Source of the DNA: Spirochaetia bacterium
GTDB taxonomy: Bacteria; Spirochaetota; Spirochaetia; SZUA-6; Bin103
DNA: 64,000 bases
Direction of reading: 5' to 3'
Assembly: GCA_965208575.1 (NCBI GenBank)
Contig: CBDBOV010000001.1
Span: 288,001-352,000, forward strand
The position numbers and the translations under genes were made by a program. The notes under the pieces are model-generated. The model saw only the letters and a list, made by a program, of their open reading frames with translations. It did not search any database and was not told the origin of the DNA. Position 1 is the first letter of the stretch; the number at the start of each line of letters is the position of its first letter. Below are positions 1-12,329 of the stretch, in pieces.

Positions 1-764
1 CTCAGGCGATCGCACCGTTGCAGCAGCTCGGGATGACGATCCTGCATCTGATCAAGCAGTCGCTGTGCCTGCGGCTGCTCACCGGTCGACGCCTTGGTGA
101 CCTCGAACGCCAGCGGCACCTCGTAGGTGGCGTCCACGACCAAGTGCAACAGGTAGCCGAACCAGTAGTGTTTCTTCTTGCCTTTCTTCTCGCCCTTCTC
201 GCCCTTCTTCTCGCCGGAACCCTTGACGCCCCAATCGGCATCGCGGTCGCGGCGCCCGTCGGTGTCTTCCTTGTTATCCTTCGGCACCGGATAGCTGCTC
301 GGACCGTTGGCCAGGGAGTGCAGCTCCTTGCCGTCCAGCGCCTGTACCTGGCCCAGGTCCGGCAGCTCAATCCGGAGTTCGTCGAGGGTGCTGTGGAACA
401 GCTCATCGATCTGCCCCTGATGCTTGCGCAGCCGGCGCTGGAAGCGGGTATAGGCGTATTCGCTGGGCACCGCCCGTGCGCCGTCGAACGGGTCGAACCC
501 GCACAGGTCTCGCAACTGCGCGTTGCGCAGCAACTCGCGCCGCAAGGCGGCGATGCTGGGATGCTGGAACACGAAGCCGGCGATCAGCGAGTTCCACATC
601 GGGCGCACCGGATAATCGTTGCGACCGCGACCGCGACCGGCTTCCAGCAGTTGCATCAGCGGCTCGTCGGGGAGCGCGTCGAGCACCAGCGTCAGGCGTT
701 CGAGATCACCCAACTGGTCGACGCTGTCCCAGCGGAACAGAAACGGATGTGGTATAGTGGCCAT
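1..764 (-). CDS. IS5/IS1182-like DDE transposase (DUF772-type N-terminus), runs off the window start
   Basis: Manual translation from ATG at 764 (AGGAG upstream): MATIPHPFLFRWDSVDQLGDLERL...GRGRNDYPVRPMWNSLIAGFVFQHPS...ALDGK...DADWGVK...YWFGYLLHLVVDA. The frame is open to the window edge and is absent from the ORF track because it has no stop. Confidence 0.85.
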   Translation of the reverse strand, partial: MATIPHPFLFRWDSVDQLGDLERLTLVLDALPDEPLMQLLEAGRGRGRNDYPVRPMWNSLIAGFVFQHPSIAALRRELLRNAQLRDLCGFDPFDGARAVPSEYAYTRFQRRLRKHQGQIDELFHSTLDELRIELPDLGQVQALDGKELHSLANGPSSYPVPKDNKEDTDGRRDRDADWGVKGSGEKKGEKGEKKGKKKHYWFGYLLHLVVDATYEVPLAFEVTKASTGEQPQAQRLLDQMQDRHPELLQRCDRL

Positions 765-1058
765 CGGCGGTTCTCCTGTTGTGAATTACTGTTCACTTGC
801 CACTATGGCGAGTTACAGGAGAACCGTCAATTATTTTGTAGACAAACAGTTGCGATGTATCATCGGGGCCTTGACCGGCGCTCCCGACGCGCGTACAGGG
901 GATCAGCAGGTCGTGGGGTAAGAAATACCTCCCCCTGGTTTCTGATCGCCTGCATCGGGCTTGCAGCAAGCGCAATTGCCTCGGTCACGGGGTAAAGAAA
1001 AAATCGCCCACTTCTATCTCGCTGCCCGCTTGGAACTTACCGACAGCGCAATTGGCTC
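1..1058 (-). mobile_element. Partial insertion sequence with two stacked ~75-bp end-like units (909-982, 983-1058)
   Basis: Transposase at 1-764. Upstream are two degenerate tandem units, each starting GAG(C/G)CAATTGCGCT and ending TTACCCC..GACC on the minus strand. The exact terminus is uncertain. Confidence 0.5.
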
Positions 1059-1911
1059 TGATCGCCCCGGTCCAATCGACGATGGCCACGGCGAGGTCGG
1101 AAGCGCTCTGCAGGGTGAAGGTAACCTGGTCGCCAGGCGGAGCGTCGATGGCGAACGCCTGTTTCGCCCAGAGATAGTCCAGGTCGAAGTGAATGGGTGT
1201 GGCTTGCGCGGTCGCCGCCAGGTTCCGGTCGCCGCGGCGTTGCGGGACATCCAGACCCGTCAGCAGGGCGGTAACGCGCGGAATCAGGTCGGCGGCGGAC
1301 ATCGCCATACCGAAGCGACCGAGGTCGCTCGCGAACCCGCTCATGCCGACCACGGCACCCGCCTCCGAAGCCAGCACTCCGCCGCTCTGCCCGTCATCGA
1401 CGGCCGCGTCGGTTTGCAGGAAGGTCACGTCCTGACCCGGCCAGCGGCGGTAGCGCGACAGGATGCCGCGGCTGATGGTGGGCTGAGGGAACGACTCCCA
1501 CTCGCCGGAATAACCGATGGCGAACAGCTCGGTACCGACCGGAAGCGTGGTGGAGGTGTCGAAGGGCGGCAGGACCGGGGGCGAGTCGAGCTGAACGGGG
1601 CCGAGGACGGCGATGTCGGTGAGCAGGTCCCAGACGATCAGGGGCACGTCGAGCAGCTCGGTACCGTCGGGGAACACGATGCGAGCAGAGCGGTGCGGGT
1701 ACAGTACGTGGGCGGCGGTGAGAATGGTATTCGAGTCCAGGAGCAGCCCGCTGCCGCTGCCGGGGCCGGCCTCGATGAACACGACCGCCGGAGCGACCGA
1801 CGTGTAGACCGAGGAGGCGGTGTTCTGTTGGGCGTAGGCGGCGGTACAGAGCAGAGCGATTGCAGCCAGTGCAGCCAGTGCAGCCGGTGCTGAGGACACG
1901 GGACGATGCAC
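985..1911 (-). CDS. Secreted trypsin-like (S1/trypsin_2) serine protease, C-terminus probably truncated by the IS
   Basis: Signal peptide ending AYA-QQ; catalytic triad motifs TAAHVL, DIAVL and GQSGG. The last ~23 codons lie in the IS-end repeat unit. Confidence 0.85.
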   Translation of the reverse strand: MHRPVSSAPAALAALAAIALLCTAAYAQQNTASSVYTSVAPAVVFIEAGPGSGSGLLLDSNTILTAAHVLYPHRSARIVFPDGTELLDVPLIVWDLLTDIAVLGPVQLDSPPVLPPFDTSTTLPVGTELFAIGYSGEWESFPQPTISRGILSRYRRWPGQDVTFLQTDAAVDDGQSGGVLASEAGAVVGMSGFASDLGRFGMAMSAADLIPRVTALLTGLDVPQRRGDRNLAATAQATPIHFDLDYLWAKQAFAIDAPPGDQVTFTLQSASDLAVAIVDWTGAIRANCAVGKFQAGSEIEVGDFFFTP

Positions 1912-1938
1912 GATCAGTTCCAGCCACCAGCGGAACGA

Positions 1939-2538
1939 TCAGCGCCGGCCATCGTGTACGGGCAGCAACGACTGAACATGTTGTACAACGCCCCGGAGCA
2001 CCGGCACGTTGGCGCCGGCGCGAACCAGCGTACACAAGCCGAGATAGAGGCCCAGCAACGCGCGCGCGGTCTGGACGAGGTCCACGTTGCCGGACACTTC
2101 GTTGACGCCGCGGGCCCGTTCGATGGCGTCCCGAAAGCGCACCTCCATGCCCTGGAGCAGACCTTGCAGCGCCTCGGCCACCTTTGGAGCGACGGTCCTC
2201 GACTCCAGGGCGGCGTTGACGAGGAGACACTGCTGACCGCGCTGCGACGAAACGTCCGCTTCGGCAGCCCATTGGAATGCGGCGATCAGCGCGGCGCGCG
2301 GTGAACCTTCACCGCGCAGCGCGTGCATACCAGGAGCACGACACTCGGTGCCGTAACGATCGAGGGTCTGCACGAACAAGGACTGCTTGTCGCCGAAGTT
2401 GGCGTACACGGCGCTGCGGGAAATCCCGATACGGCGGGCCAGCTCTGCCATCCCGGTGTCCTGGTAGCCGCGCTCGCCAAACAGCTCAATCGCGGTGTCG
2501 AGGGCGTCTTCTATGGCAAAGGATCTGTGTCTCGGCAT
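1939..2538 (-). CDS. TetR/AcrR family regulator (NemR/ComR-like), copy 1
   Basis: MPRHRSFAIEDALDTAIELFGERGY...GISRSAVYANFGDKQSLF HTH; CLLVNAALE C-terminal motif; start set at ATG 2538. Confidence 0.92.
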   Translation of the reverse strand: MPRHRSFAIEDALDTAIELFGERGYQDTGMAELARRIGISRSAVYANFGDKQSLFVQTLDRYGTECRAPGMHALRGEGSPRAALIAAFQWAAEADVSSQRGQQCLLVNAALESRTVAPKVAEALQGLLQGMEVRFRDAIERARGVNEVSGNVDLVQTARALLGLYLGLCTLVRAGANVPVLRGVVQHVQSLLPVHDGRR

Positions 2539-2652
2539 GGCGTCGGCCGTGGAGGCTGGGGGGACGCCGAACAGCGCCCGCCGGCTGCTGATAGTTTCCA
2601 GAATCCACTCATAATACTGCGTTGACAACACCATAGACGGAAACTGCCACAC

Positions 2653-2680
2653 TTGACAAGGCATCCTGGGGACATATAGT
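2653..2680 (+). promoter_or_regulatory. Putative sigma70 promoter for hybrid kinase 1
   Basis: TTGACA (2653-2658), 16-nt spacer, TATAGT (2675-2680) in an AT-rich divergent intergenic region. Confidence 0.55.
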
Positions 2681-2751
2681 GGATTTAATGTGTATGATCG
2701 CGCTATATTATGTCCTTATTGTGGATCAATCGACAGCAAGGGGAGGGTCTG

Positions 2752-5088
2752 ATGAAAAGTACAGATGAACTCACGAGGGAGATCGAGGCGCTGCGGGTCC
2801 GCATCTCGAACTTGAGCGGTGCGGTGCTGCGCATCAGCGCAAGCCTCGACGTCGACACCGTCCTGAAGGAGATCGCGGAAAACGCCCGCGCCCTGACCGG
2901 TGCCCGCGGCGCCGTGATTACTGCCTTCGGCGACGCGGGGCATATCGACTACGTGACCTCCGGCCTCACCGCGGACGAGGAGCGCGAGTTGATCGAGTGG
3001 CCGGACGGTCTGCGGCTGTTCGAGCACCTGCGGAACCTTCCCTCGCCGCTGCGGGTGTCCGACCTGCGCGGCTACGTGCGCTCGCTCGGTTTCTCGCCGG
3101 AGGTCATCTTCGTGGACACCTTCCTGGCAACGTCGATTCGCCATCGGAACGTGCAAGCCGGCTCCTTTTTTCTCGGCGAGAAGGAAGCGGGACAGGAATT
3201 CACCAAGGAGGACGAGGAGGTGCTGGCAATGTTCGCGGCGCAGGCGGCGACGGCGATCACGAACGCCCGCACCCACCGTGCCGAGCAGCGCGTGCGGGCC
3301 GACCTGGAGGCGCTGATCAACACCTCGCCGGTGGGGGTCGTGGTGATCGACGCCAGAACCGCCCGCCTGGTGTCGATCAACCGGGAGGCAAGGCGGATTG
3401 TGGCGGGGCTGCTCGATCCGGGCCAGACCGAGGAAGAACTGCTGCAGGTGTTGATCTTCCGGCTCGCCGACGGGCAGGAAGTCTCGCTCAACGATTTCCC
3501 GCTGGCGACCGTGCTCAGCAACGCCGCCGCGATTCGCGCCGAAGAGATGGTGCTGTCGGTGCGCGACGGGCGCAGTGTCACGGTGCTGATCAACGCCACG
3601 CCGATCAAGTTCGAGGGCGATGCGGTTCAGTCATTGGTCGTGACCATGCAGGACCTGGGGCCGCTGCAGGAGCTGGAGCGGCAGCGGGCGGAGTTCCTGG
3701 GGATGGTGAGCCATGAGCTGCGGGCTCCGTTGAGCTCCGTGAAGGGGCTGGCCGCCACCGTGCTCGGCAACGCGCGCGTCGCGGATCCGGCCGAGGTGCG
3801 CCAGTTCTTCCGGATCATCGAGCAGCAGGCCGATCACATGGACGGCCTGATCAGAGATCTGCTCGATGTTGGACGCATCGACACGGGCATGCTCTCGGTG
3901 GAGCCGGCACCGGTGGAGGTGGCGGCGCTTGTGGACCAGGCGCGGAGCACGTTCCTGAGCGGCGGTGCTCGGCACGTGCTGAACATCGACCTGCCGGCGG
4001 ATCTGCCGCCGGTGATGGCGGATGAGCAACGGATCGTACAAGTCCTGAACAACCTGTATTCCAACGCGGCTCAGCACTCGCCCGAGTCCTGCCCCATTCG
4101 GGTCGCGGCGGTGCACGATGGCGCCGAGGTAGCGATCTCGGTGTCCGACGAGGGTCGTGGCCTGACGCCGGAACGGCTGCGGCATCTGTTCCGCAAGCAC
4201 ACCGTCGTCGACGACGATGGAGGAGCGCGCAGACGGGGAGCCGGTCTGGGGCTGGCCATCTGCAAGGGGCTGGTCGAGGCTCACGGAGGCCGTATCCGGG
4301 GCGAGAGTCGTGGGCCGGACCTGGGAACGCGGTTTACCTTCACGCTTCCGATAGTCGACGAGGCCGGCGGTGGCGCCGCACCGCGGCGGTCGCGTCAGCC
4401 GGGCGATGGCCGCGAGCGTACCGGCATACTGGTCGTGGACGACGACCCGCTGACTCTGCACTACGTCCGGGACGCTCTCACCGCGGCCGGCTACGCGCCG
4501 GCGGTGACAGGAGATCCGCGAGAGGTGCTGCACCTGATCGAGACAAGAAGGCCGCAGTTGGTGGTGCTCGACCTGTTATTGCCTGGCATGGATGGCATCA
4601 AGTTGATGGAGTCCCTCCCCGAGCTGGCGGACATTCCGGTGATCTTTCTGTCCGCCTACGGGCGCGAGGAGACGATCGCGAGGGCACTGGAGGCGGGAGC
4701 CGCCGACTACATCGTCAAGCCATTCTCGCCGACGGAACTGACCGCGAGAGTCCGGGCGGCGCTGCGCAAGCGGTCCAAGCCGGACCCCTTCGCGGTGGCG
4801 GACCTGGCAATCGACTACGAGAAGCGCCACGTGACCGTGGGCGGCCAACCCGTGCGGCTGACCGTGACCGAGTACGAGCTGCTGCGATTGCTCTCGGTCA
4901 ACGCGGGACGGGTGTTGACCTACGAGTCACTGGTGCGGCAGATCTGGGGAGAGCGGGAGGATACGGAACCGGTGCGGACCTTCGTGAAGAAGCTGCGCGG
5001 CAAGCTCGGCGACAGCCCGGCAAACCCGACGTACATCTTCAACGAGCGTGGGGTTGGCTACCGCATGGCCGCACCGGGCGACGAGTAG
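2752..5088 (+). CDS. Soluble hybrid GAF-PAS-HisKA-HATPase-REC-OmpR/PhoB wHTH protein (HK1)
   Basis: GGGGAGG then ATG 2752. H-box SHELRAPL, N-box NNLYSNA, G1 DEGRG, G2 GAGLGL, REC VVDDD/LDLLLPGMDG/DYIVKPF, wHTH ending NERGVGYRM. No transmembrane segment seen. Confidence 0.92.
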   Translation: MKSTDELTREIEALRVRISNLSGAVLRISASLDVDTVLKEIAENARALTGARGAVITAFGDAGHIDYVTSGLTADEERELIEWPDGLRLFEHLRNLPSPLRVSDLRGYVRSLGFSPEVIFVDTFLATSIRHRNVQAGSFFLGEKEAGQEFTKEDEEVLAMFAAQAATAITNARTHRAEQRVRADLEALINTSPVGVVVIDARTARLVSINREARRIVAGLLDPGQTEEELLQVLIFRLADGQEVSLNDFPLATVLSNAAAIRAEEMVLSVRDGRSVTVLINATPIKFEGDAVQSLVVTMQDLGPLQELERQRAEFLGMVSHELRAPLSSVKGLAATVLGNARVADPAEVRQFFRIIEQQADHMDGLIRDLLDVGRIDTGMLSVEPAPVEVAALVDQARSTFLSGGARHVLNIDLPADLPPVMADEQRIVQVLNNLYSNAAQHSPESCPIRVAAVHDGAEVAISVSDEGRGLTPERLRHLFRKHTVVDDDGGARRRGAGLGLAICKGLVEAHGGRIRGESRGPDLGTRFTFTLPIVDEAGGGAAPRRSRQPGDGRERTGILVVDDDPLTLHYVRDALTAAGYAPAVTGDPREVLHLIETRRPQLVVLDLLLPGMDGIKLMESLPELADIPVIFLSAYGREETIARALEAGAADYIVKPFSPTELTARVRAALRKRSKPDPFAVADLAIDYEKRHVTVGGQPVRLTVTEYELLRLLSVNAGRVLTYESLVRQIWGEREDTEPVRTFVKKLRGKLGDSPANPTYIFNERGVGYRMAAPGDE

Positions 5089-5157
5089 GGGCTCTGTCCG
5101 CGGGGCACGAACGGATCGCGCCGGTATGGCGCCATCGACGGTGAATGCGTGTGCGCC

Positions 5158-5190
5158 AAAAATACTCCCGACAGGCCCAAAAAAACACTG
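5158..5190. promoter_or_regulatory. Degenerate AAAA(A/G)ACACTG box pair, 22-bp spacing
   Basis: AAAAATACTCC (5158-5168) and AAAAAACACTG (5180-5190), matching the perfect repeat at 10768-10789. Confidence 0.3.
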
Positions 5191-5241
5191 TCTGGCCACC
5201 ACAGGCCGTCTCGCCGTGCGGGACCGGCGCGCCTGACGCAA

Positions 5242-5874
5242 TCACTCCGAGGAGAGCTTGGGCGGGCGCGGGCTGATCGGTCCCGGGCCCCGACTTCGAC
5301 TCCCCCGAGGCGGCGGCAGCAACGCTTCGACCTGGCGCGCGGCGGCGCGCAGCACCGGCTCGCTCCGCATCAGCAGGTTTGTACCGAGGAACAGACTGAG
5401 CAGAGTCGAAGCCACCTGGGCAGCGTCGACGTTGCTGTCGATCTCGCCCCCCGCCATTCCGCGTTCGATCCCACGTCGAACGTTGTCCTCGAGAAACGCG
5501 AGTTCATCCCGGACCACGGCAGACACCTCCGCGTCATCCGGCACCAGCTCGAGTGCCGTCCTGATGAGCAGAACGATGCCGGGTGGCGTGGCGCCGCCGC
5601 CGTCTGAGAGTGTCGACTCGAACAGGTCGACGATCGCCTCGCGCGGCGCGGCGGCCGACTCCAGGTCCGGCATCCGGCAGGTCTGGGCGTCCCGGCGCAG
5701 GCCAGTCAGGAACAAGGCCCGCTTGTCACCGAACGTGGCATACAAGCTGCTCCGGCTGACCCCGACGTGCTCCGCGACATGGCGCATGTGCGTGGATCCA
5801 TAGCCGCGTGTCCGGAATACCTCCATCGCCCTGGTCAGTGCTTTCTCGGGATCGAATGTCTTTGTTCTCGGCAT
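5242..5874 (-). CDS. TetR/AcrR family regulator, copy 2 (paralogue of copy 1)
   Basis: MPRTKTFDPEKALTRAMEVFRTRGY...GVSRSSLYATFGDKRALF; start ATG 5874. Confidence 0.92.
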   Translation of the reverse strand: MPRTKTFDPEKALTRAMEVFRTRGYGSTHMRHVAEHVGVSRSSLYATFGDKRALFLTGLRRDAQTCRMPDLESAAAPREAIVDLFESTLSDGGGATPPGIVLLIRTALELVPDDAEVSAVVRDELAFLEDNVRRGIERGMAGGEIDSNVDAAQVASTLLSLFLGTNLLMRSEPVLRAAARQVEALLPPPRGSRSRGPGPISPRPPKLSSE

Positions 5875-6066
5875 GCTCTCTCTCACGGTCGAAGCAGTAG
5901 AAGTCCGCAAATCATAGGCGAGGATCGTGAACACAGTGTGCATTATTGTGATATAATGGTGGCGAATCTGTGGATCTTTGGGCTGATGCCTCGTACTGAG
6001 ATGGATCGACATCGCCAGCGCGGAGCGGAGCGGTCGCAGCGTTCATCCGAGGGTACCGGAGACGGG

Positions 6067-7932
6067 ATGATGGAGGGCAGAGAACAACTCAGCTTGCAGA
6101 ACAGAGCGCCGCGGGGCCGTGGCTCGCGCCTGAGCCGGGCTGACCTGGAGGCCCTGATCGATACCTCGCCGATGGGAGTCGTGGTGCTCGATGCCGGGAC
6201 CGGCCATCCGGTGTCCTGCAACCAGGAAGCGAGGCGGATCGTATCGGGTTTGCTCGATCGCGGGCAGACCGTGGAAGGGCTGTTGCCGGCACTGACGTGC
6301 CGGTTCGCCGACGGCAAGGAGGTAGCGCTCGACCAGTTCCCGCGGGCGGTGGTTCTGAACAGCGCCGCCGCGGTGGGCGCCGAAGAGATCGTGCTCTCGG
6401 CACGCAACGGACGGAGCGTCAGGACACTGGTCAACGCGACGCCGATCAAGACCGAGGACGGCACGGTCCAGTCGGTGGTGGTGACGATGCAGGACCTTGA
6501 GCCACTGGACGAGTTGGAGCGCCGGCGGGCGGAGTTCCTGGAGATGGTGAGCCACGAGTTGCGGGCGCCGCTGAGTTCGATCAAGGGCCTGACCGCCACC
6601 GTGCTCGGCAACTCGGGGATCGTAGACCCGGCCGAGGTGCGGCAGTTCTTCCGAATCATCGAACAGCAGGCGGATGACATGGACGGCCTCATCAGAGACC
6701 TGCTCGATGCCGGACGCATCGAAACCGGCACGCTGTCGGTGGCACCGAGACTCGTTGACGTTGCCGGGCTGGTGGACCATGCGAGGCGGACGTTCCTCAG
6801 CAGCGGTGCCCGGCACATCCTGGCGATCGACCTGGCGCCGGACCTGCCGCGCGTGATGGCCGATGAGGCGCGCATCGCGCAAGTTCTGAACAACCTGTTC
6901 TCCTACGTGGCCGGCAACTCCTCGCAGTCCTCGCCCATTCGGGTCACGGCGCTGCAGGAAGGAGCTGAGCTGGCGGTCTCGGTAACGGCCGACAGCGCGG
7001 GCGAGGCGGCCGACCGGTTGCCGCACCTGTTCCGGAAACACGCCGCGATTGGCGGCGTCGGGGGGGCGAGGGGCCGGGAGACCAACCTCGGCCTGGCTAT
7101 CTGCAAGGGACTGGTGGAGGCCCACGGCGGCCGCATCCGCGCCGAGAGCCTGGGGCCCGGCCAGGGGACGCGAATTACATTCACGCTGCCGGCGGTCGAA
7201 CACACCGGTGGACGGACCTCCCCGCGGCGTTCGGTTGCGGCTCGCGATGCGGAGCGTACGGGAGTACTCGTTGTCGACGACGACCCGCTGACGCTGCGCA
7301 TTGTGCGTCAAGCGCTGGTCAGCGCCGGCTTCGCTACGTCGGTGACCGGCGATCCGCGAGAGTTGCCGCACCTCATCAGCACCAGACAGCCGCAGTTGGT
7401 ATTGCTCGACCTGGTGTTTCCGAACGTCGACGGCATCGCGTTGATGGAGTCCGTCCCCGCGCTGGCCGAACTTCCGGTCATCTTTATTTCCGGCTATGGG
7501 CGGGACGAGACGATCGCCAGGGCACTGGAGGCGGGCGCGGTCGATTACATCGTCAAGCCGTTCTCGGCGACCGAGTTGACAGCGCGAGTCCGGGCCGCCC
7601 TGCGCAAGCGGACCAGACCCGCGCCCTTCCTGGTAGCGAATCTGGAGATCGACTACGAGCTGCGCCGAGTGACCGTCGCAGGCCGTACCGTGCGACTGAC
7701 CGTGACCGAGTACGAGCTGCTGCGCGTGCTCTCGGTCAACGCCGGGCGCGTATTGACCTACGACTCACTGCTGCGCCAGATCTGGGGAGAACGGGTGACC
7801 GCCGGTTCCGACCCGGTGCGTACGTTCGTCAAGAAGCTGCGCGGCAAGCTGGGCGATGATCCGGCATGCCCGACGTACATCTTCAACGAACGCGGGGTCG
7901 GCTACCGAATGGCGGTGCCGGCCAATCGATGA
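6067..7932 (+). CDS. Hybrid PAS-HisKA-(degenerate HATPase)-REC-wHTH protein (HK2), no GAF
   Basis: Close paralogue of HK1 from ADLEALI onward. H-box and REC Asp are intact; N/G1/G2 boxes are altered. Start uncertain (6001, 6067 or 6070). Confidence 0.88.
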   Translation: MMEGREQLSLQNRAPRGRGSRLSRADLEALIDTSPMGVVVLDAGTGHPVSCNQEARRIVSGLLDRGQTVEGLLPALTCRFADGKEVALDQFPRAVVLNSAAAVGAEEIVLSARNGRSVRTLVNATPIKTEDGTVQSVVVTMQDLEPLDELERRRAEFLEMVSHELRAPLSSIKGLTATVLGNSGIVDPAEVRQFFRIIEQQADDMDGLIRDLLDAGRIETGTLSVAPRLVDVAGLVDHARRTFLSSGARHILAIDLAPDLPRVMADEARIAQVLNNLFSYVAGNSSQSSPIRVTALQEGAELAVSVTADSAGEAADRLPHLFRKHAAIGGVGGARGRETNLGLAICKGLVEAHGGRIRAESLGPGQGTRITFTLPAVEHTGGRTSPRRSVAARDAERTGVLVVDDDPLTLRIVRQALVSAGFATSVTGDPRELPHLISTRQPQLVLLDLVFPNVDGIALMESVPALAELPVIFISGYGRDETIARALEAGAVDYIVKPFSATELTARVRAALRKRTRPAPFLVANLEIDYELRRVTVAGRTVRLTVTEYELLRVLSVNAGRVLTYDSLLRQIWGERVTAGSDPVRTFVKKLRGKLGDDPACPTYIFNERGVGYRMAVPANR

Positions 7933-8009
7933 GCCATGTCGACCCGAGGTGGCGGGCGCTTGCGCACCCATCATGCCGTTCGTGCTTGACGCGTCGAGCC
8001 GGGCCGTGA

Positions 8010-10382
8010 TCACCGCGGCCATAGCTCCGACGGCGGGGGCATGCGGTAACCGACGCCGCGTACGTTCAACACCCAGGTCGGTGTCGAGGCGTCGTCACCG
8101 AGCTTCGCCCGCAGCTTCTTCACGAAGTTGCGTACCAGGTTGACATCGCCCGTCTCGCGGTCGCCCCAAATCTGGCGCAGCAGAGTATCGTAGGTCACGA
8201 CCCGTCCCGCTCTGCGCGACAGCGCGCTCAGCAGCTCGTACTCGGTCGCGGTCAGCACCACCTCACGCTCGCCGACCGTTACCCGCCGCTGCTCGTAGTG
8301 AATGGCGAGTTCGCCGAGCGCGAACGGCTCAGGTTCGGCGTGCCTGCGCAGCGCCGCCCGCACTCGGGCCGTCAACTCGGTCGCCGAGAACGGCTTGACG
8401 ATGTAATCCGCGGCGCCGCACTCCAGAGCACGGGCGATGGTCTCGTCACGTCCGTACCCGGAGATGAAGACGACCGGCATATCGGCGAGTTCCGGTACGG
8501 TTTCCATCAGTTCGATGCCGTCGGTCCCCGGGAGCATCAAGTCGAGCAGCACAAGTTGAGGATGCTCGGTGCGGATGATGTGCGACAGTTCGGTGTGGTC
8601 GCCGGTCACGAGCGGCGAGTAGTGCGCGGCAGTGAGCGCGTCGCGCACGTAGCGCAGCGTCTGCGGGTCGTCATCCACCACCAGGATGCGACCGGGTTCG
8701 TACGCCGCCCGAGACCGCTCCGAGCGGCGCGGATCGCCCCCTGCCTGGCGGGCGTCGACGGCGCTGTCGGCCACCGGCACGGTGAACGTGAACCGTGCGC
8801 CTTGCCCGGCACCGTCGCTCTCGGCCCAGATTCGGCCCCCGTGCGCCTCCACCAGCCCCTTGCAGATGACCAGCCCGAGGCCGGCGCCCCCCTTGTCGCG
8901 TATCCCGCCGGTCTCGGCGCCGCCGGCATCCCGTTGGAACAGTCGCGGCAGCAGCTCATGCGGCACGCCGCGGCCTTCATCCGACACCGATATGGCGATG
9001 TCGAAGCTGCGGCGCCCCGCGCTGATCCGGATCGGCGAAGACTCGGGAGAGCACCTCGCGGCGTTCGACAGGAGGTTGTTCAGCACCTGCACGATGCGTC
9101 GCCGATCGGCCATGACCCGTGGCAGGTCAAGGGGCAGGTCGATCAGCACGTTGTGCCGGCCGCCGCCGCTCAGGAACGTGTTGCGCGCGCGGTCCACCAG
9201 GTCGGCCACCTCGGATGACTCGGGCGATACCGAGAGCGTGCCCGAGTCGATGCGGCCGGCGTCGAGCAAGTCGCCGATGAGGCCGCGCATGCGTTCCGCC
9301 TGGTCATGGATGATCCGGAAGTACTCGTGGCGTTCGGCCGGGTCGAGCTCCGGCGCCGCCTCCAACAAGATGTCAACCGAGCCCTTGATGGCGGTGAGCG
9401 GTGCCCGCAACTCGTGGCTTACCATCCCGAGGAACTCGGCGCGCAGCCGTTCCAGCTCATCGAGCGGGGCCAGATCCTGCATGGTGACCACCAGCGATTC
9501 GACCGCACCATCCTCGGACTGGATCGGCGTGCAGTTGACCAGGGTCCTGACGCTGCGCCCGTCCGGAATCGAGAGCACCACCTCCTCCGCGCGCACCGTC
9601 TCGGGGTTGCTGACGAGCTGCCCTGTCAGCGGGACTTCGGCAAGCGCGATTTCGCGGCCGTCCGCGCGCCGGCAGGTGACCAACTCGAGCAGCTCTTCGA
9701 GCGGACGCCCCGGCGAGCGCAGGCCCTCCACTATGCGCCGCGCCTCGCGATTCAACGAAATCGGGGCGCCGGTTGCGGCATTCAACACCACCACGCCGAT
9801 CGGCGAGGTTTCGACCAACGCTTCCAGGTCGGCCCGCGCGCGTTGCTCGTCGCGGTGGGTGCGAGCATTGGCGATCGCCGACGTTGCCAGCGAGGCGAAC
9901 ATCACGAGTACCCTCTCGTCCTCGGTCGTGAATTCCGGTGCGCCTTCCTTGCCGGCGAGAAACAGGTTGCCGACCGGCACGCCGCGGTGCAGCATCGGCG
10001 TTGCCTGGAACGTTTTCGAGTGCATCAGGTGCGGGGAGTACCCGAGCGAGCGAACGAACGCGGGCATGTCTGACAGGCGTATCGGCCCCGGCAGGCCACG
10101 GAGGTGCTCCCAGAGCTTGGGCCCGTCCGGCCAGGCCGCGAACTCGGCGTGCTCCTCGGCGGTGAAGCCGGAGCTGACGTACTCCTGCAGCTGTCCCCGG
10201 TCGTCGTTGGTAGTGATGACGCCGTAGCGGGCGCCGGTGAGTACTCGCGCGTTGTCGACGACCTCCTGCAGGACGGTGGTCACGTCGAGGGTCGCGCTGA
10301 TGCGCAGGATCGCGGAACTGAGCGTGGAGATACGCTCGCGAAGCGTATGTAGTTCTTGGCTTGGGTCCTTGGCTTGATGCAA
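8010..10382 (-). CDS. Hybrid GAF-PAS-HisKA-HATPase-REC-wHTH protein (HK3)
   Basis: AAGGAG RBS then TTG at 10382; SHELRAPL, NNLLSNA, DEGRG, GAGLGL, LDLMLPG and NVRGVGYRM motifs. Confidence 0.9.
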   Translation of the reverse strand: MHQAKDPSQELHTLRERISTLSSAILRISATLDVTTVLQEVVDNARVLTGARYGVITTNDDRGQLQEYVSSGFTAEEHAEFAAWPDGPKLWEHLRGLPGPIRLSDMPAFVRSLGYSPHLMHSKTFQATPMLHRGVPVGNLFLAGKEGAPEFTTEDERVLVMFASLATSAIANARTHRDEQRARADLEALVETSPIGVVVLNAATGAPISLNREARRIVEGLRSPGRPLEELLELVTCRRADGREIALAEVPLTGQLVSNPETVRAEEVVLSIPDGRSVRTLVNCTPIQSEDGAVESLVVTMQDLAPLDELERLRAEFLGMVSHELRAPLTAIKGSVDILLEAAPELDPAERHEYFRIIHDQAERMRGLIGDLLDAGRIDSGTLSVSPESSEVADLVDRARNTFLSGGGRHNVLIDLPLDLPRVMADRRRIVQVLNNLLSNAARCSPESSPIRISAGRRSFDIAISVSDEGRGVPHELLPRLFQRDAGGAETGGIRDKGGAGLGLVICKGLVEAHGGRIWAESDGAGQGARFTFTVPVADSAVDARQAGGDPRRSERSRAAYEPGRILVVDDDPQTLRYVRDALTAAHYSPLVTGDHTELSHIIRTEHPQLVLLDLMLPGTDGIELMETVPELADMPVVFISGYGRDETIARALECGAADYIVKPFSATELTARVRAALRRHAEPEPFALGELAIHYEQRRVTVGEREVVLTATEYELLSALSRRAGRVVTYDTLLRQIWGDRETGDVNLVRNFVKKLRAKLGDDASTPTWVLNVRGVGYRMPPPSELWPR

Positions 10383-10767
10383 GTAGTCTCTCCTTCGGGC
10401 CTCGACCCGAGCACGCTCGGGCCTTGCACGTTTACGGAAAAAATAGCTGCCGCGGTGAAAGCGGATATACGTGAAGGCTACTATCAATCCCCGATAGATG
10501 CTACCACGGAGTCACGAGCAGCCACGAGCAGCATCGACGGCTGCGTGCGGGCGCCGTCCATCGAGGCCGCTGCGACCGTGGAACGACGTACCCGAGATCG
10601 GCGAGTCGGTGCGCATGGCACGGGTGCGCCCAAAGGGGGACGCCGCCCACCAGGTCGCGGGCACGCCCCACCGGCGCGGCGCTCACGGCCCGGGGTGGCC
10701 GCGGCAGAGCCATGCCCGGCGTCCGCGTTCTGACGCCGCGCCGGCGACCGCATGCGCCTCGCACTCA

Positions 10768-10789
10768 AAAAGACACTGAAAAGACACTG
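10768..10789. promoter_or_regulatory. Perfect 11-bp tandem direct repeat AAAAGACACTG x2, candidate OmpR/PhoB-type binding site
   Basis: Read directly in the divergent HK3/GNAT intergenic region; the 11-bp period is typical of wHTH response-regulator boxes. Confidence 0.45.
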
Positions 10790-11162
10790 CCGGGCTTCGC
10801 TCGTCCATGTTCTGGTCACTAAAGAAGCTACAGCGCCGCCGCGGAGGCGCCGATGATGAAAGAAGGGCGGGCGCGCATGCCGCGACATGCAGCGAAACTG
10901 ACCGGGGAGCTATCCGATCCCACAACGCGGCGCGCGCCCGCCCCATTTCTCGCCGGAGCATCCGCCGTCGGGCCCGAGCCGGTTGCCATCGGGAGCGGGA
11001 CAGGCCACCGGTCGAAACCGGGCGGCCCGCGGCATGGATGGTGGGAGCCGCCTCGGCTACGCGCCGCCGCGCTCGTCGCCCGGTCACGCGGGCAGGACGT
11101 GAACGTGGACCTGCGCATCGCGCGCTGCCGCTCTGTTGTTCATGTTGGCACGAGCCCGTACC

Positions 11163-12329
11163 ATGCAGGTTACCGTGAGCGCAGCGTGCACGACCTCGAA
11201 CAGTGCCATTACCGTGCGCCCGGCTCGCTCGGCGGCCGACCGGAGGCGCTTCATCCGCTTTCCGTGGAGGGTGTACCGCGACATCGATGCCTGGGTGCCG
11301 CCGCTGATCAGCGACTTCAAGAAGAAGCTGGACACCGTGCGCAACCCGTTCTACGAGCACGCCGAGATCGAGCTGTTCCTGGCGTGGCGCAACGGCGCTC
11401 CGGCGGGCACGGTGGCGGCGATCATCGACTACCACTACAACAACTTTCACGACGAGCGCACCGGGTTCTTCGGGTTCTTCGAGGCGGTGAACGACGACGC
11501 GGTGGCGGGGGCGCTGATCGACGCGGCGGCGGAGTGGGTGGCAGCGCGCGGCATGGAGCGGCTGCGCGGCCCCGTCAACCCGTCGACCGCGGAGTCGATG
11601 GGCATCCTGCTGGACGCCTACGACCGGCCGCCCGCCATCATGATGGCCTACAACCCGCCCTACTACCCGCGCCTGCTGGAGAGTGCCGGGCTGAGCAAGG
11701 CCAAGGACATGGTGGCGCTGTACATGGCGGAGGCCCAGACGCCGGTGGCGCCGAGGGTGGCCCGCGTGGCGCAACTGGTGCGCCGCCGTCACAACGTGAC
11801 CATCCGCAGCGCGGACCTCAAGCAGATTGACCGCGAGATGGCGCTGGTCAAGCTGATCTACAACGACGCCTGGACGAAGAACTGGGGGTTCGTGCCGTTC
11901 ACCGACGCCGAGATCGACTACGCCGCCGACGACCTGAAGATGGTGCTGGATCCTGACCTGGCGTTCTTCGCCTTCGTGGACGGCGAGCCGGCCGGTTTCT
12001 CGCTGGCGGTGCCCGACTTCAACCAGGTGCTGCGGCGCATGAACGGGCGGTTGTTTCCAGCCGGCGTGTTCAAGGTGCTCTGGTACAAGCGCCGGATCGA
12101 CCTGCTGCGGGTGGTGCTGGCCGGGGTGCGCCACCGGTATCGCAACCTGGGTCTGGATGCGGTGTTCTACTACGAGACCTACACGCGCGGCACCGCCAAG
12201 GGGTTCAACCAGGGCGAGTTCTCGTGGGTGCTGGAGGACAATGTCGCAATGCGCACCACGCTGGAGAAGATGGGTGCGCGCGTCTACAAGCGCTATCGCA
12301 TGTACGACAGGCCGGTGCGCAGATCGTGA
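11163..12329 (+). CDS. GNAT-fold N-acetyltransferase (YghO-like)
   Basis: RRFIRFPWRVY...WVPPL...FGFFEA...RGPVNPS...YNPPYY...SWVLEDN...YKRYRMY pattern. Confidence 0.8.
   Translation: MQVTVSAACTTSNSAITVRPARSAADRRRFIRFPWRVYRDIDAWVPPLISDFKKKLDTVRNPFYEHAEIELFLAWRNGAPAGTVAAIIDYHYNNFHDERTGFFGFFEAVNDDAVAGALIDAAAEWVAARGMERLRGPVNPSTAESMGILLDAYDRPPAIMMAYNPPYYPRLLESAGLSKAKDMVALYMAEAQTPVAPRVARVAQLVRRRHNVTIRSADLKQIDREMALVKLIYNDAWTKNWGFVPFTDAEIDYAADDLKMVLDPDLAFFAFVDGEPAGFSLAVPDFNQVLRRMNGRLFPAGVFKVLWYKRRIDLLRVVLAGVRHRYRNLGLDAVFYYETYTRGTAKGFNQGEFSWVLEDNVAMRTTLEKMGARVYKRYRMYDRPVRRS

Follow-up and report, generated by a model that had tools for sequence, protein, structure and literature searches.

Positions 1939 to 10382 of the window, by which we mean the whole stretch of 64,000 nucleotides analysed from the Spirochaetia bacterium genome, hold five genes in the order TetR1, HK1, TetR2, HK2 and HK3, as delimited by open reading frame calls and Pfam domains. 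TetR1 (1939..2538, minus strand, 199 aa, likely ATG at 2538, ORF 1939-2664) and HK1 (2752..5088, plus strand, 778 aa, likely ATG at 2752, ORF 2710-5088) are transcribed in opposite directions from a 213 bp intergenic region (2539..2751). The same applies to TetR2 (5242..5874, minus strand, 210 aa, likely start at 5874, ORF 5242-6012) and HK2 (6067..7932, plus strand, 621 aa, likely ATG at 6067, ORF 5767-7932), which are separated by 192 bp (5875..6066); both distances vary with the choice of start codon. HK3 (8010..10382, minus strand, 790 aa, likely TTG at 10382, ORF 8010-10487) converges on HK2 with 77 bp between the stop codons. The layout given in the first-pass annotation, two divergent TetR-kinase pairs followed by a third kinase gene facing them, is thus borne out. 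Both TetR proteins match Pfam TetR_N and TetR_C_13 and possess the HTH as well as the ligand domain. Downstream of TetR1 resides a gene for a Trypsin_2 serine protease (985..1911, minus strand, Pfam E 7.9e-22). From the TetR1 stop (1939) to the start of the protease gene (1911) there are 27 bp, and the protease N-terminus resembles, by eye, a Sec signal peptide ending in AYA/Q, in agreement with the earlier description of a secreted protease 27 bp behind TetR1. The two genes probably share one operon. The 3' end of the protease gene is interrupted by an IS element, the right end of which covers 1..1058 and includes a transposase fragment (ORF 3-764, minus strand, Pfam DUF772 and DDE_Tnp_1). 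This segment recurs at seven more places in the genome, six times at 100% and once at 95% identity. The native protease sequence runs from 1911 down to 1059 and the final 24 codons are IS-derived.

HK1, HK2 and HK3 share 60-70% pairwise identity (70% for HK1 and HK2). Assembly artefacts had been named as a possible source of such copies, but the copies are real: they diverge from one another, the same array recurs at 88-94% nucleotide identity in the related genome G006, and the array junctions are bridged by contigs from other sequencing runs. A convergent pair of HK3-type and HK2-type genes is present not only in G006 but also in genome G007. GC3 amounts to 0.76-0.84 in the array genes versus at least 0.92 in the conserved flank.

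All three kinases are soluble fusions of HisKA, HATPase, receiver (REC) and OmpR-type winged helix-turn-helix (wHTH) domains, as had been proposed; the part of the proposal that fails concerns HK2, which is devoid of a GAF domain and has a degenerate ATP-binding site. In HK1, an N-terminal helix is followed by Pfam GAF_2, PAS, HisKA, HATPase_c, Response_reg and then Trans_reg_C, with His321 in HisKA, intact N, G1 and G2 boxes and Asp607 in the receiver. HK3 has the same domain set, every catalytic box is intact and the receiver carries Asp614. The boxes common to both (SHELRAPL, NNLxSNA, DEGRG, GAGLGL) are those of catalytically competent HisKA kinases. No 19-residue window of HK1, HK2 or HK3 exceeds a Kyte-Doolittle value of 1.7 and the sole peak falls within REC, such that a membrane helix is not indicated in any of them. 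Matches in the PDB cover parts of the chain only: in HK1, HK853-type kinases match over residues 312-553 and MtrA and KdpE over residues 570-789.

The output domain is an OmpR/PhoB winged helix (Trans_reg_C, E 2e-18 to 2e-21) and not an AraC-type HTH. The REC-wHTH portion matches full-length MtrA, KdpE and RegX3 end to end (E 1e-42 to 1e-33), and the phospho-accepting aspartates (Asp607, Asp448 and Asp614 in HK1, HK2 and HK3) are accompanied by the conserved Ser/Thr and Lys. The module thereby resembles OmpR/PhoB regulators (MtrA, 2gwr; KdpE, 4kny; RegX3, 2oqr) in the combination of REC and winged helix and in these conserved residues. However, OmpR/PhoB regulators stand alone and are served by a separate kinase, whereas the module described here is covalently joined to its own HisKA/HATPase core. 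Most fusions of kinase and receiver are phosphorelay kinases according to a review (PMC12471899), and TorS, LuxQ and RcsC models of NCBIfam do match, albeit below their cut-offs. The receiver could then be a mere intermediate of a multi-step phosphorelay, with DNA binding by the wHTH not governed by the protein's own kinase. The contiguity of REC and wHTH and their end-to-end match to complete OmpR-family regulators, together with the failure to find an HPt domain with Pfam, render this highly improbable.

The only PDB sequence matches of the GAF domain are the GAF-A domains of DosS and DosT (2w3d, 2vzw; phmmer E 2e-15 to 4e-13), and the same proteins are the best Foldseek match of a structural model of this domain (pLDDT 83.8; E 6e-12, 28-29% identity, TM about 0.8 on the target). 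DosS/DosT (DevS) from Mycobacterium tuberculosis bind heme in GAF-A. Val is present at the position of the DosS proximal heme His and Phe at that of the distal Tyr, following a DosS numbering anchored on the E87A entry in the alignment. Fold and sequence are therefore held in common with DosS/DosT but the heme ligands are not, and DosS-style heme binding is not supported.

HK1, HK2 and HK3 belong to a very large uncharacterised family of soluble single-chain two-component regulators that is horizontally spread. More than 8000 database matches were scored, with 8000 of 8000 scored candidates matching; the best 120 of these are 64-92% identical and all but two of the 120 contain the full domain set. 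Within the same taxonomic family, 10 of 23 genomes carry members, while searches of 37 genomes elsewhere in the order and of a sample of 300 from the phylum found none. Homologues with 55-63% identity occur in metagenome-assembled genomes of Dehalococcoidia and Ca. Versatilivorator (Acidobacteriota). Further family fragments reside in the source genome itself (C4:781621 and C1:122718). In NCBIfam no model reaches its cut-off, and in the literature we found no characterised member of the soluble family but only membrane-bound AraC-type hybrid two-component systems (HTCS). The earlier inference of an uncharacterised cytoplasmic system is upheld in that neither NCBIfam nor the PDB nor the literature yielded a counterpart of the whole chain.

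Gao, Wu and Stock (2024, PMC11253607) describe HTCS of Bacteroides, such as BT4124 and BT1754, as single polypeptides that unite a sensor, HisKA/HATPase, a receiver and a DNA-binding domain. The proteins studied here likewise combine kinase, receiver and DNA-binding domain in a single chain, and with a DNA-binding domain tethered to a dimeric kinase they face the same need to remain silent without a signal, as that account puts it for HTCS. The HTCS treated there are located in the membrane, use periplasmic Reg_prop/Y_Y_Y sensors and an AraC-type HTH and belong to polysaccharide utilisation loci. HK1, HK2 and HK3, in contrast, have no hydrophobic segment; the family is soluble, senses through GAF and PAS domains, ends in an OmpR-type winged helix and resides in variable islands without conserved target genes. 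Single-chain two-component regulators have been studied almost solely in the form of the membrane-bound AraC-type HTCS of Bacteroides, while metagenomes contain thousands of members of the soluble GAF/PAS-to-OmpR version. A family that passes from phylum to phylum and brings its promoter sites along may be regarded as a compact sensor-to-promoter part.

HK2 deviates from this plan. Pfam detects PAS, HisKA, HATPase_c, REC and Trans_reg_C but no GAF domain; the N-terminal helix abuts PAS directly because GAF has been deleted in frame, with a clean junction. The H-box His163, Asp448 in REC and the wHTH have all remained intact. The boxes for ATP binding have degenerated (N-box NNLFSYVAGNS with Asn replaced by Tyr, G1 TADSAG, G2 TNLGL) and differ from those of a competent kinase. 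HK2 could simply be a decaying gene without a function of its own, for which the loss of GAF and of the N, G1 and G2 boxes and the family fragments elsewhere in the genome could be adduced. We consider this very unlikely. The HK2 frame is open, and dN/dS versus the G006 orthologs is 0.36, the same value as for HK3 (HK1, 0.27). Of the sequences with 80% or more identity to HK2, all 11 have the Tyr in the N-box, and two of these still possess GAF. The HK2 clade, sister to the HK1 clade (SH-aLRT 99 and 100), has at least 11 members that retain His, Asp, Lys and the recognition helix, and DHp of the HK2 type shows 87% identity in a comparison of G000 with G007. Judged by sequence, HK2 belongs to a conserved clade of predicted pseudokinases that is new here.

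Between HK2 and HK1, DHp (83% identity) and wHTH (85%, recognition helix identical) are the most conserved domains and the ATP-binding domain is the least conserved. HK2 keeps His, Asp, DHp and recognition helix, and would therefore most likely act on the DNA sites that HK1 uses, as a sensor-blind partner of HK1 or a modulator of its output. DivL and RetS appear among the PDB matches. These kinase-like proteins do not signal by ATP-driven autophosphorylation of their own but modulate a related kinase pathway, and may offer a model for HK2, which unlike them carries its own receiver and DNA-binding domain. A strict HK1-HK2 partnership cannot be general, as G007 has an HK2-type gene, convergent with an HK3-type neighbour, while the query used here found no HK1-clade gene in it. 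In the G007-type proteins, the Asn of the N-box is still there and the G1 Asp alone is missing, which makes loss of kinase activity less certain for them. A kinase-dead, sensor-less HK2 next to a full copy amounts to a natural experiment on the tuning of tethered kinase-regulator fusions.

The recognition helices quoted in the first-pass annotation are present as written, VRTFVKKLRGKL in HK1 and HK2 and VRNFVKKLRAKL in HK3, and the regions upstream of the genes were inspected for putative binding sites. The TetR1-HK1 intergenic region features predicted back-to-back sigma-70-like promoters, that of HK1 at 2653-2680 on the plus strand (TTGACA-16-TATAGT) and that of TetR1 at 2659-2630 on the minus strand, which overlap at their -35 boxes; the promoter scan returned five sites versus 0.6 expected. 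GTG boxes start at 2679, 2690 and 2721 upstream of HK1, and a promoter alignment revealed the boxes TGTGTATGAT (2689-2698) and TTATTGTGGA (2716-2725), invariant across five HK1-clade promoters. Between TetR2 and HK2 we found a promoter-like site at 5928-5957 (TGAACA-18-TATAAT, the second hexamer being preceded by TG) and five GTG boxes with 10-11 bp spacing (5927, 5938, 5948, 5959 and 5970) that are conserved in G006. The region upstream of HK3 (10383..10560, minus strand) looks unlike these promoters and contains a CCGTAAACGTG box and two copies of a 10-bp tandem repeat, GCTGCTCGTG. The copy number of this repeat differs among strains, runs X5, X6 and X8 showing an insertion of 10 bases behind 10512.

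Across 22 non-redundant upstream regions of the family, the sense strand contains 44 copies of GTGA compared with 11 of TCAC, and GTGA pairs at 11-bp spacing number nine versus 0.1 expected, a count reached in none of 500 shuffles. Direct repeats spaced by about one helical turn are a further feature shared with OmpR/PhoB regulators, and their phasing at 11 bp suggests autoregulation. By eye, the final GTGA repeat is situated 12-14 nt ahead of a -10-like hexamer. Such a position just upstream of the gene's own -10, seen in much of the family, would imply positive autoregulation; phased repeats are clear in about one third of the family's upstream groups only. The HK1 and HK2 boxes (GTGG, GTGT and GTGA) overlap the best sigma-70-like promoter matches or lie downstream of them, so that autorepression fits as well as activation. 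That the members share DNA sites, as had been proposed, is plausible for HK1 and HK2, given identical recognition helices, 85% identical wHTH domains and similarly phased putative GTG(G/A/T) boxes, and finds no support for HK3, in which the helix differs and the promoter looks different.

The proposal that TetR repressors are an integral part of the system deserves closer scrutiny. On this reading, a TetR/HK cassette was duplicated and joined by a third kinase, and all of them form one circuit with shared sites and with levels set by the TetR proteins. The gene layout and the near-identical recognition helices agree with this, and the intergenic distances of 192 and 213 bp, which shift with the start codons chosen, lie close to the limit in the 200-bp rule that Ahn et al. 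(2012, PMC3511530) give for divergent TetR regulators. TetR linkage is moreover seen again in other strains and on metagenome contigs. Both TetR-HK junctions are bridged in strains 90-99% identical (other runs from three studies, sponge metagenomes), that between TetR2 and HK2 by contigs of four runs. TetR1 orthologs with 73-74% identity adjoin HK genes in L067 and L066. On L067, an independent metagenome contig, a TetR1-like gene, a second TetR gene and a protease gene (ortholog 88% identical) follow each other divergently from an HK1-like gene with 79% HK identity; in L066, the TetR1-like gene adjoins an HK fragment. A duplication of the cassette nevertheless fails on the identity of only 36% between TetR1 and TetR2 compared with 70% between HK1 and HK2, and on the closest TetR1 paralogue in the genome (50%), which is located elsewhere, outside the array. 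The place given to HK3 is not supported either: it falls into a different clade, its helix differs and its promoter looks different. TetR_N is encoded beside only one of 31 related loci, the one being the syntenic ortholog, and beside neither of the two other paralogues in the source genome, and the syntenic G006 locus keeps HK1 without TetR1. A palindromic TetR operator was not found. We thus regard one integrated circuit as distinctly unlikely. Linkage to TetR genes recurs within the HK1/HK2 sub-clade and is not conserved family-wide.

At the other extreme, TetR1, the second TetR present in L067 and the protease may constitute a module of their own that has travelled along in a variable island without any regulatory link to the HK genes. 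Members of this TetR subfamily are normally arranged in tandem pairs away from HK genes (six pairs in six genomes), and only three of 19 TetR homologues in relatives adjoin one. A transposase gene adjoins each TetR locus examined in the genome, the one next to TetR1 being a multi-copy IS; TetR1 and the protease either disappeared from G006 or were never there. TetR2 is 71% identical to its G006 ortholog by tblastn (79% over the aligned coding sequence) with a dN/dS of 0.77, which may reflect relaxed constraint. As with the repressors surveyed in PMC3511530, each TetR gene here points away from its neighbour, the start codons being 192 and 213 bp apart, but this neighbour is itself a transcription regulator, as in only 1% of the divergent TetR targets counted there, and an operator palindrome was not detected. 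Against a purely incidental association stand the persistence of both junctions in the 90-99% identical strains and of the arrangement in L067 at 79% HK identity, as well as the overlap of the predicted TetR1 and HK1 promoters; we consider it possible, though rather doubtful. The TetR genes stand outside the family's design, as neighbours peculiar to the island of the HK1/HK2 sub-clade; the pairing is a trait local to a single sub-clade rather than a novel system architecture.

The explanation we favour, and deem reasonably probable from the sequences at hand, is that the locus encodes regulators of this family with HK2 as a modulator and TetR proteins as sub-clade neighbours. Going by domains and intact residues, a DosS-like and probably heme-free GAF domain would read a cytoplasmic signal together with PAS in HK1 and HK3, the HisKA/HATPase core would autophosphorylate its histidine and the phosphoryl group would pass to the Asp of the REC domain tethered in the same dimer. 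The OmpR-type winged helix would then bind phased direct repeats built around a GTG(A/G) core, resulting in positive autoregulation in that large part of the family where the repeats precede the gene's own -10. HK2 might receive a phosphoryl group in trans, mixed dimers being one way, or else serve as a phosphatase or as a competitor. The TetR proteins would probably act as repressors of the shared divergent promoters, with TetR1 also repressing the downstream protease, and would thereby add a small-molecule gate. It is even conceivable, though rather unlikely, that the HK1/HK2 island is a transferable unit in which HK1 is permanently paired with HK2 as its sensor-deleted, ATP-blind copy, which sets the gain or threshold of HK1 output via mixed dimers or competition at shared phased GTG sites, while the TetR proteins adjust the HK1:HK2 ratio in response to a second signal, a small molecule. 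If true, this would be a pseudokinase tuning circuit of a kind undescribed for two-component systems with their own DNA-binding domain. Three side-by-side paralogous hybrid two-component proteins are also found in Lysobacter enzymogenes, where HtsH1, HtsH2 and HtsH3 are reported as 50-53% identical and as having a common promoter target (PMC8463545). The HtsH proteins are presented there as products of one operon with Reg_prop/Y_Y_Y sensors and a transmembrane segment, whereas HK1, HK2 and HK3 are soluble, are encoded in three separate transcription units on both strands and include one kinase-dead copy. The three proteins bear on how cross-talk is avoided, or put to use, among paralogues whose DNA-reading heads are nearly identical.

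The array is laid out as described in the first-pass annotation, and ORF listing and Pfam placed all six genes where they had been reported. Starts were chosen from homologue lengths, Shine-Dalgarno-like sequences and alignments. A Trypsin_2 protease gene (985-1911, minus strand) is followed by TetR1 (ORF 1939-2664, minus strand, likely start ATG 2538, 199 aa), HK1 (ORF 2710-5088, plus strand, likely start ATG 2752, 778 aa), TetR2 (ORF 5242-6012, minus strand, likely start ATG 5874, 210 aa), HK2 (ORF 5767-7932, plus strand, likely start ATG 6067, 621 aa) and HK3 (ORF 8010-10487, minus strand, likely start TTG 10382, 790 aa). The gap between TetR1 and the protease gene is 27 bp, the protease has a signal-peptide-like N-terminus, no membrane helix is indicated in the sequences of the HK proteins, and the recognition helices quoted for HK1-HK3 match the translations exactly. 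The full domain set ascribed to all three (GAF_2, PAS, HisKA, HATPase_c, Response_reg, plus Trans_reg_C) is present in HK1 and HK3, but HK2 is devoid of GAF. The three copies share 60-70% pairwise identity and the whole array occurs again in the related genome G006 at 88-94% nucleotide identity; it is thus not an assembly artefact.

The middle part of the HK proteins matches HK853-type kinase cores in the PDB, and the receiver-wHTH part aligns end to end with complete OmpR-family regulators (MtrA, KdpE and RegX3; E 1e-42 to 1e-33), while the solved PDB chains extend at most over the kinase and receiver or over the receiver and DNA-binding domain. HK1 and HK3 retain the phospho-acceptor His, intact N, G1 and G2 boxes and, in the receiver, Asp, Ser and Lys, and the simplest reading of these residues is that each protein would hold a complete His-to-Asp pathway in one dimeric protein with a terminal DNA-binding head. 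The best structural neighbours of the GAF domain model (pLDDT 83.8) are the GAF-A domains by which DosS and DosT bind heme (Foldseek E 6e-12 at 28-29% identity); these are also the sole PDB sequence matches of the domain (E 2e-15). Heme sensing was considered on account of these matches and dropped: in the alignment to DosS, Val occupies the position of the proximal heme His and Phe that of the distal Tyr (by a residue numbering that we take to be correct and that is anchored on the E87A entry), and we therefore make no claim of heme sensing.

The closest described systems are the HTCS of Bacteroides (PMC11253607) and HtsH, three consecutive proteins of Lysobacter (PMC8463545). Both follow the same one-polypeptide logic but, unlike the HK proteins studied here, they are membrane-bound with periplasmic sensors, and the Bacteroides HTCS carry AraC-type heads. 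A soluble GAF/PAS-to-OmpR form in a single chain came up neither in full-text searches of the literature outside subscription journals nor in the excerpt of PMC12471899, and no NCBIfam model reaches its cut-off with the HK proteins. The architecture itself is recurrent. A search with HK1 yielded at least 8000 scored candidates, the best 120 of which are 64-92% identical, and the same domain set is found in 118 of these, the exceptions being P0040 (without GAF) and P0065 (without Trans_reg_C). What is new from this window is a conserved, sensor-deleted pseudokinase paralogue, HK2, together with statistical support for phased, putatively autoregulatory repeats.

A tree calculated by a quick search with SH-aLRT from the region common to all (43 rows; P0065 and the locus L055 left out) groups HK1 together with the ortholog from G006 and with relatives from metagenomes. 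HK2 resides in the sister clade of HK1 along with GAF-less proteins from G006 and a further related genome, G007 (support 99; joint clade 100), and HK3 falls, with proteins of G006 and G007, into a clade of its own (99). GAF is missing from HK2 by a clean in-frame deletion that leaves the GAF-PAS linker attached to the N-terminal helix, and the ATP-binding boxes are degenerate. The essential N-box Asn is replaced by Tyr in all 11 of the sequences with 80% or more identity to HK2, a set made up of HK2, the G006 ortholog, P0126-P0130, P0134, P0135, P0038 and P0142. P0038 and P0142 have this Tyr yet retain GAF, and the loss of the N-box Asn is thus older than the GAF deletion. The three G007-type proteins have kept the N-box Asn, carry Gly instead of the G1 Asp and show a different deletion junction. 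P0040, P0143, P0145 and P0164 are GAF-less proteins of about 620 aa with intact boxes and were not counted in the HK2 clade; their start is a Met within the final helix of GAF, and they may represent truncated gene calls.

Throughout the HK2 clade the His, the receiver Asp and Lys and the recognition helix are conserved. Identity between HK2 and HK1 is highest in the wHTH (85%) and in the kinase dimerisation helices (83%) and lowest in the ATP-binding domain (62%). Comparison of the source genome, G000, with G006 gave dN/dS values of 0.36 for HK2, 0.27 for HK1 and 0.36 for HK3; HK2 is under purifying selection. A convergent pair of HK2-type and HK3-type genes is present in G000, G006 and G007, and no HK1-clade gene was detected in G007 with the HK query. 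HK1-like and HK2-like database proteins may occur on shared contigs, as the longest source contigs are equally long for P0006/P0128, P0008/P0129 and P0009/P0130.

Regions upstream of family genes feature a phased GTGA repeat. Among 22 non-redundant upstream regions, clustered beforehand though still not fully independent where promoters are related, the coding strand has 44 GTGA occurrences versus 11 of the complement, and GTGA pairs exactly 11 bp apart were counted 9 times versus 0.1 expected (none of 500 mononucleotide shuffles reached 9), with additional peaks at 21 and 32 bp. By eye, a -10-like hexamer usually follows 12-14 nt after the end of the last GTGA repeat, which places the repeat where activators of the OmpR/PhoB type take the place of a -35 box. 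GTG boxes lie at 2679, 2690 and 2721 upstream of HK1 and at 5927, 5938, 5948, 5959 and 5970 upstream of HK2. The TGTGTATGAT and TTATTGTGGA boxes are invariant across five promoters of the HK1 clade, whether or not a TetR gene lies next to them, and the HK2 boxes are kept in G006. Since the HK1 and HK2 boxes overlap strong sigma-70-like matches (TTGACA-16-TATAGT and TGAACA-18-TATAAT; 5 such matches versus 0.6 expected), it is also possible that they serve as repression sites. Upstream of HK3 we found a CGTAAACGTG-type box common to the HK3 clade and, at 10505-10530, a CGTG-containing tandem repeat of 10 bp (GCTGCTCGTG in the HK3 orientation) of strain-variable copy number, one extra copy being present in sequencing runs X5, X6 and X8. 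The proposal that all three proteins share DNA sites is accordingly plausible for HK1 and HK2 with their similar phased GTG boxes and doubtful for HK3, the upstream region of which differs. A regulon search was uninformative, as TGTGGATC occurs 252 times genome-wide versus 119 expected and longer HK1 boxes are either unique or at chance level.

From these sequence features we infer that HK2 may be a sensor-blind and ATP-blind member sharing its DNA sites with HK1. It would then be fed with phosphate in trans, or would work as a phosphatase or as a competitor.

The pairing with TetR genes is a trait of a sub-clade. As a trait of the whole family it is not borne out: TetR_N was found once in 118 flanking ORFs at 31 related loci, namely at the syntenic G006 locus, and the two other G000 paralogues have no TetR neighbour. 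Homologues of this TetR subfamily number 19 in 8 of 25 related genomes; three are situated beside an HK gene, and twelve are arranged as six tandem TetR pairs with no HK linked to them. Nor did the idea of a duplicated TetR/HK cassette hold, with TetR1 and TetR2 36% identical versus 70% for HK1 and HK2, and with the nearest TetR1 paralogue (50%) located on another G000 contig. Synteny with G006 ends at 2583, and the window has about 4 kb extra, consisting of an IS copy, the protease gene and TetR1, flanked by a solute-binding-protein gene and by the promoter of HK1. Still, TetR adjacency is no accident of G000 alone. The metagenomic contig L067 carries a protease gene (88% identical), a further TetR gene and a TetR1-like gene (73%), all transcribed in the same direction, the last divergent from an HK1-like gene (79%), and in the locus L066 a TetR1-like gene (74%) is divergent from an HK fragment. 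A 2362-nt contig from run X5 spans 1341-3702 at 99% identity, about 90% identical contigs from X6 and X8 bridge the TetR1-HK1 junction, and the TetR2-HK2 junction is bridged by contigs of all four runs compared. Because of this recurrence in L067, L066 and runs X5, X6 and X8, we regard TetR adjacency as characteristic of the island of the HK1/HK2 sub-clade.

The TetR proteins may regulate the HK genes. With 192 and 213 bp, the intergenic distances are next to the 200-bp rule for divergent TetR regulators (PMC3511530), and the promoters predicted for HK1 and TetR1 have overlapping -35 boxes, both of which would speak for such control. A TetR2 dN/dS of 0.77 points the other way, as does a search for operator palindromes, which found no inverted repeats (seeds of 6 nt within 40 bp) in either intergenic region of the window or in L067. 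The TetR_C_13 subfamily is normally arranged as a tandem pair on one strand, as seen in five related genomes and in G000 (C6:1642485-1645455), where an IS110-family transposase separates the two genes.

Five full-length family paralogues and two fragments are contained in G000 (6.5 Mb, 6 contigs). The fragments, a wHTH end and a PAS/HisKA piece (C4:781621-782034 and C1:122718-123053), are isolated, which suggests continuing turnover of family copies. At E<=1e-100, matches were found in 10 of 23 genomes of the same taxonomic family (up to 7 per genome), in 0 of 37 genomes from the other seven families of the order, and in 0 of 300 genomes of a phylum sample with three candidates scored per genome. 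Homologues of 55-63% identity are present in MAGs of Dehalococcoidia and Candidatus Versatilivorator (Acidobacteriota). GC3 of the array genes is 0.76-0.84 versus at least 0.92 in the conserved flank, and the gene neighbourhoods of the relatives are variable, with integrase, transposase and toxin-antitoxin genes among them. Distribution, GC3 and neighbourhoods fit horizontal spread combined with local expansion of the family. Several studies contributed runs, labelled as sponge metagenome or as marine metagenome, that contain DNA near-identical to the locus; no RNA run is among the datasets listed with DNA of the stretch. A 39% identical family member in a Dehalococcoidia MAG (L022:4001-6478) has nearly all catalytic residues replaced (H-box His by Glu, the receiver acidic pair and Ser/Thr position changed, G1 degenerate) and retains the wHTH despite this full catalytic degeneration. 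At L015:8300-11392 and L061:3864-5327, the paralogue on G000 contig C3 and its G006 ortholog adjoin a gene for a large Calx-beta/arylsulfotransferase-like protein.

Core synteny has its right boundary at about 11130, and no clean insertion site is definable because synteny is lacking on the left side in G001, G003, G009, G010 and G007. The IS element at 1-1058 encodes a DUF772/DDE_Tnp_1 transposase and recurs at seven further genomic places, with 100% identity in six cases and 95% in one (C1:447810, C2:17821, C2:362859, C2:531216, C4:482826, C4:484738 and C3:514079). The window copy ends inside the protease gene, to which it contributes the last 24 codons and the stop codon. Between HK3 and a ClpB-like AAA+ gene (12331-14733), the region 10498-12329 harbours two small ORFs and a 397-aa ORF, all without a Pfam match; five genomes from the genus have the 397-aa ORF next to the ClpB-like gene, conserved at 79-89% nucleotide identity.
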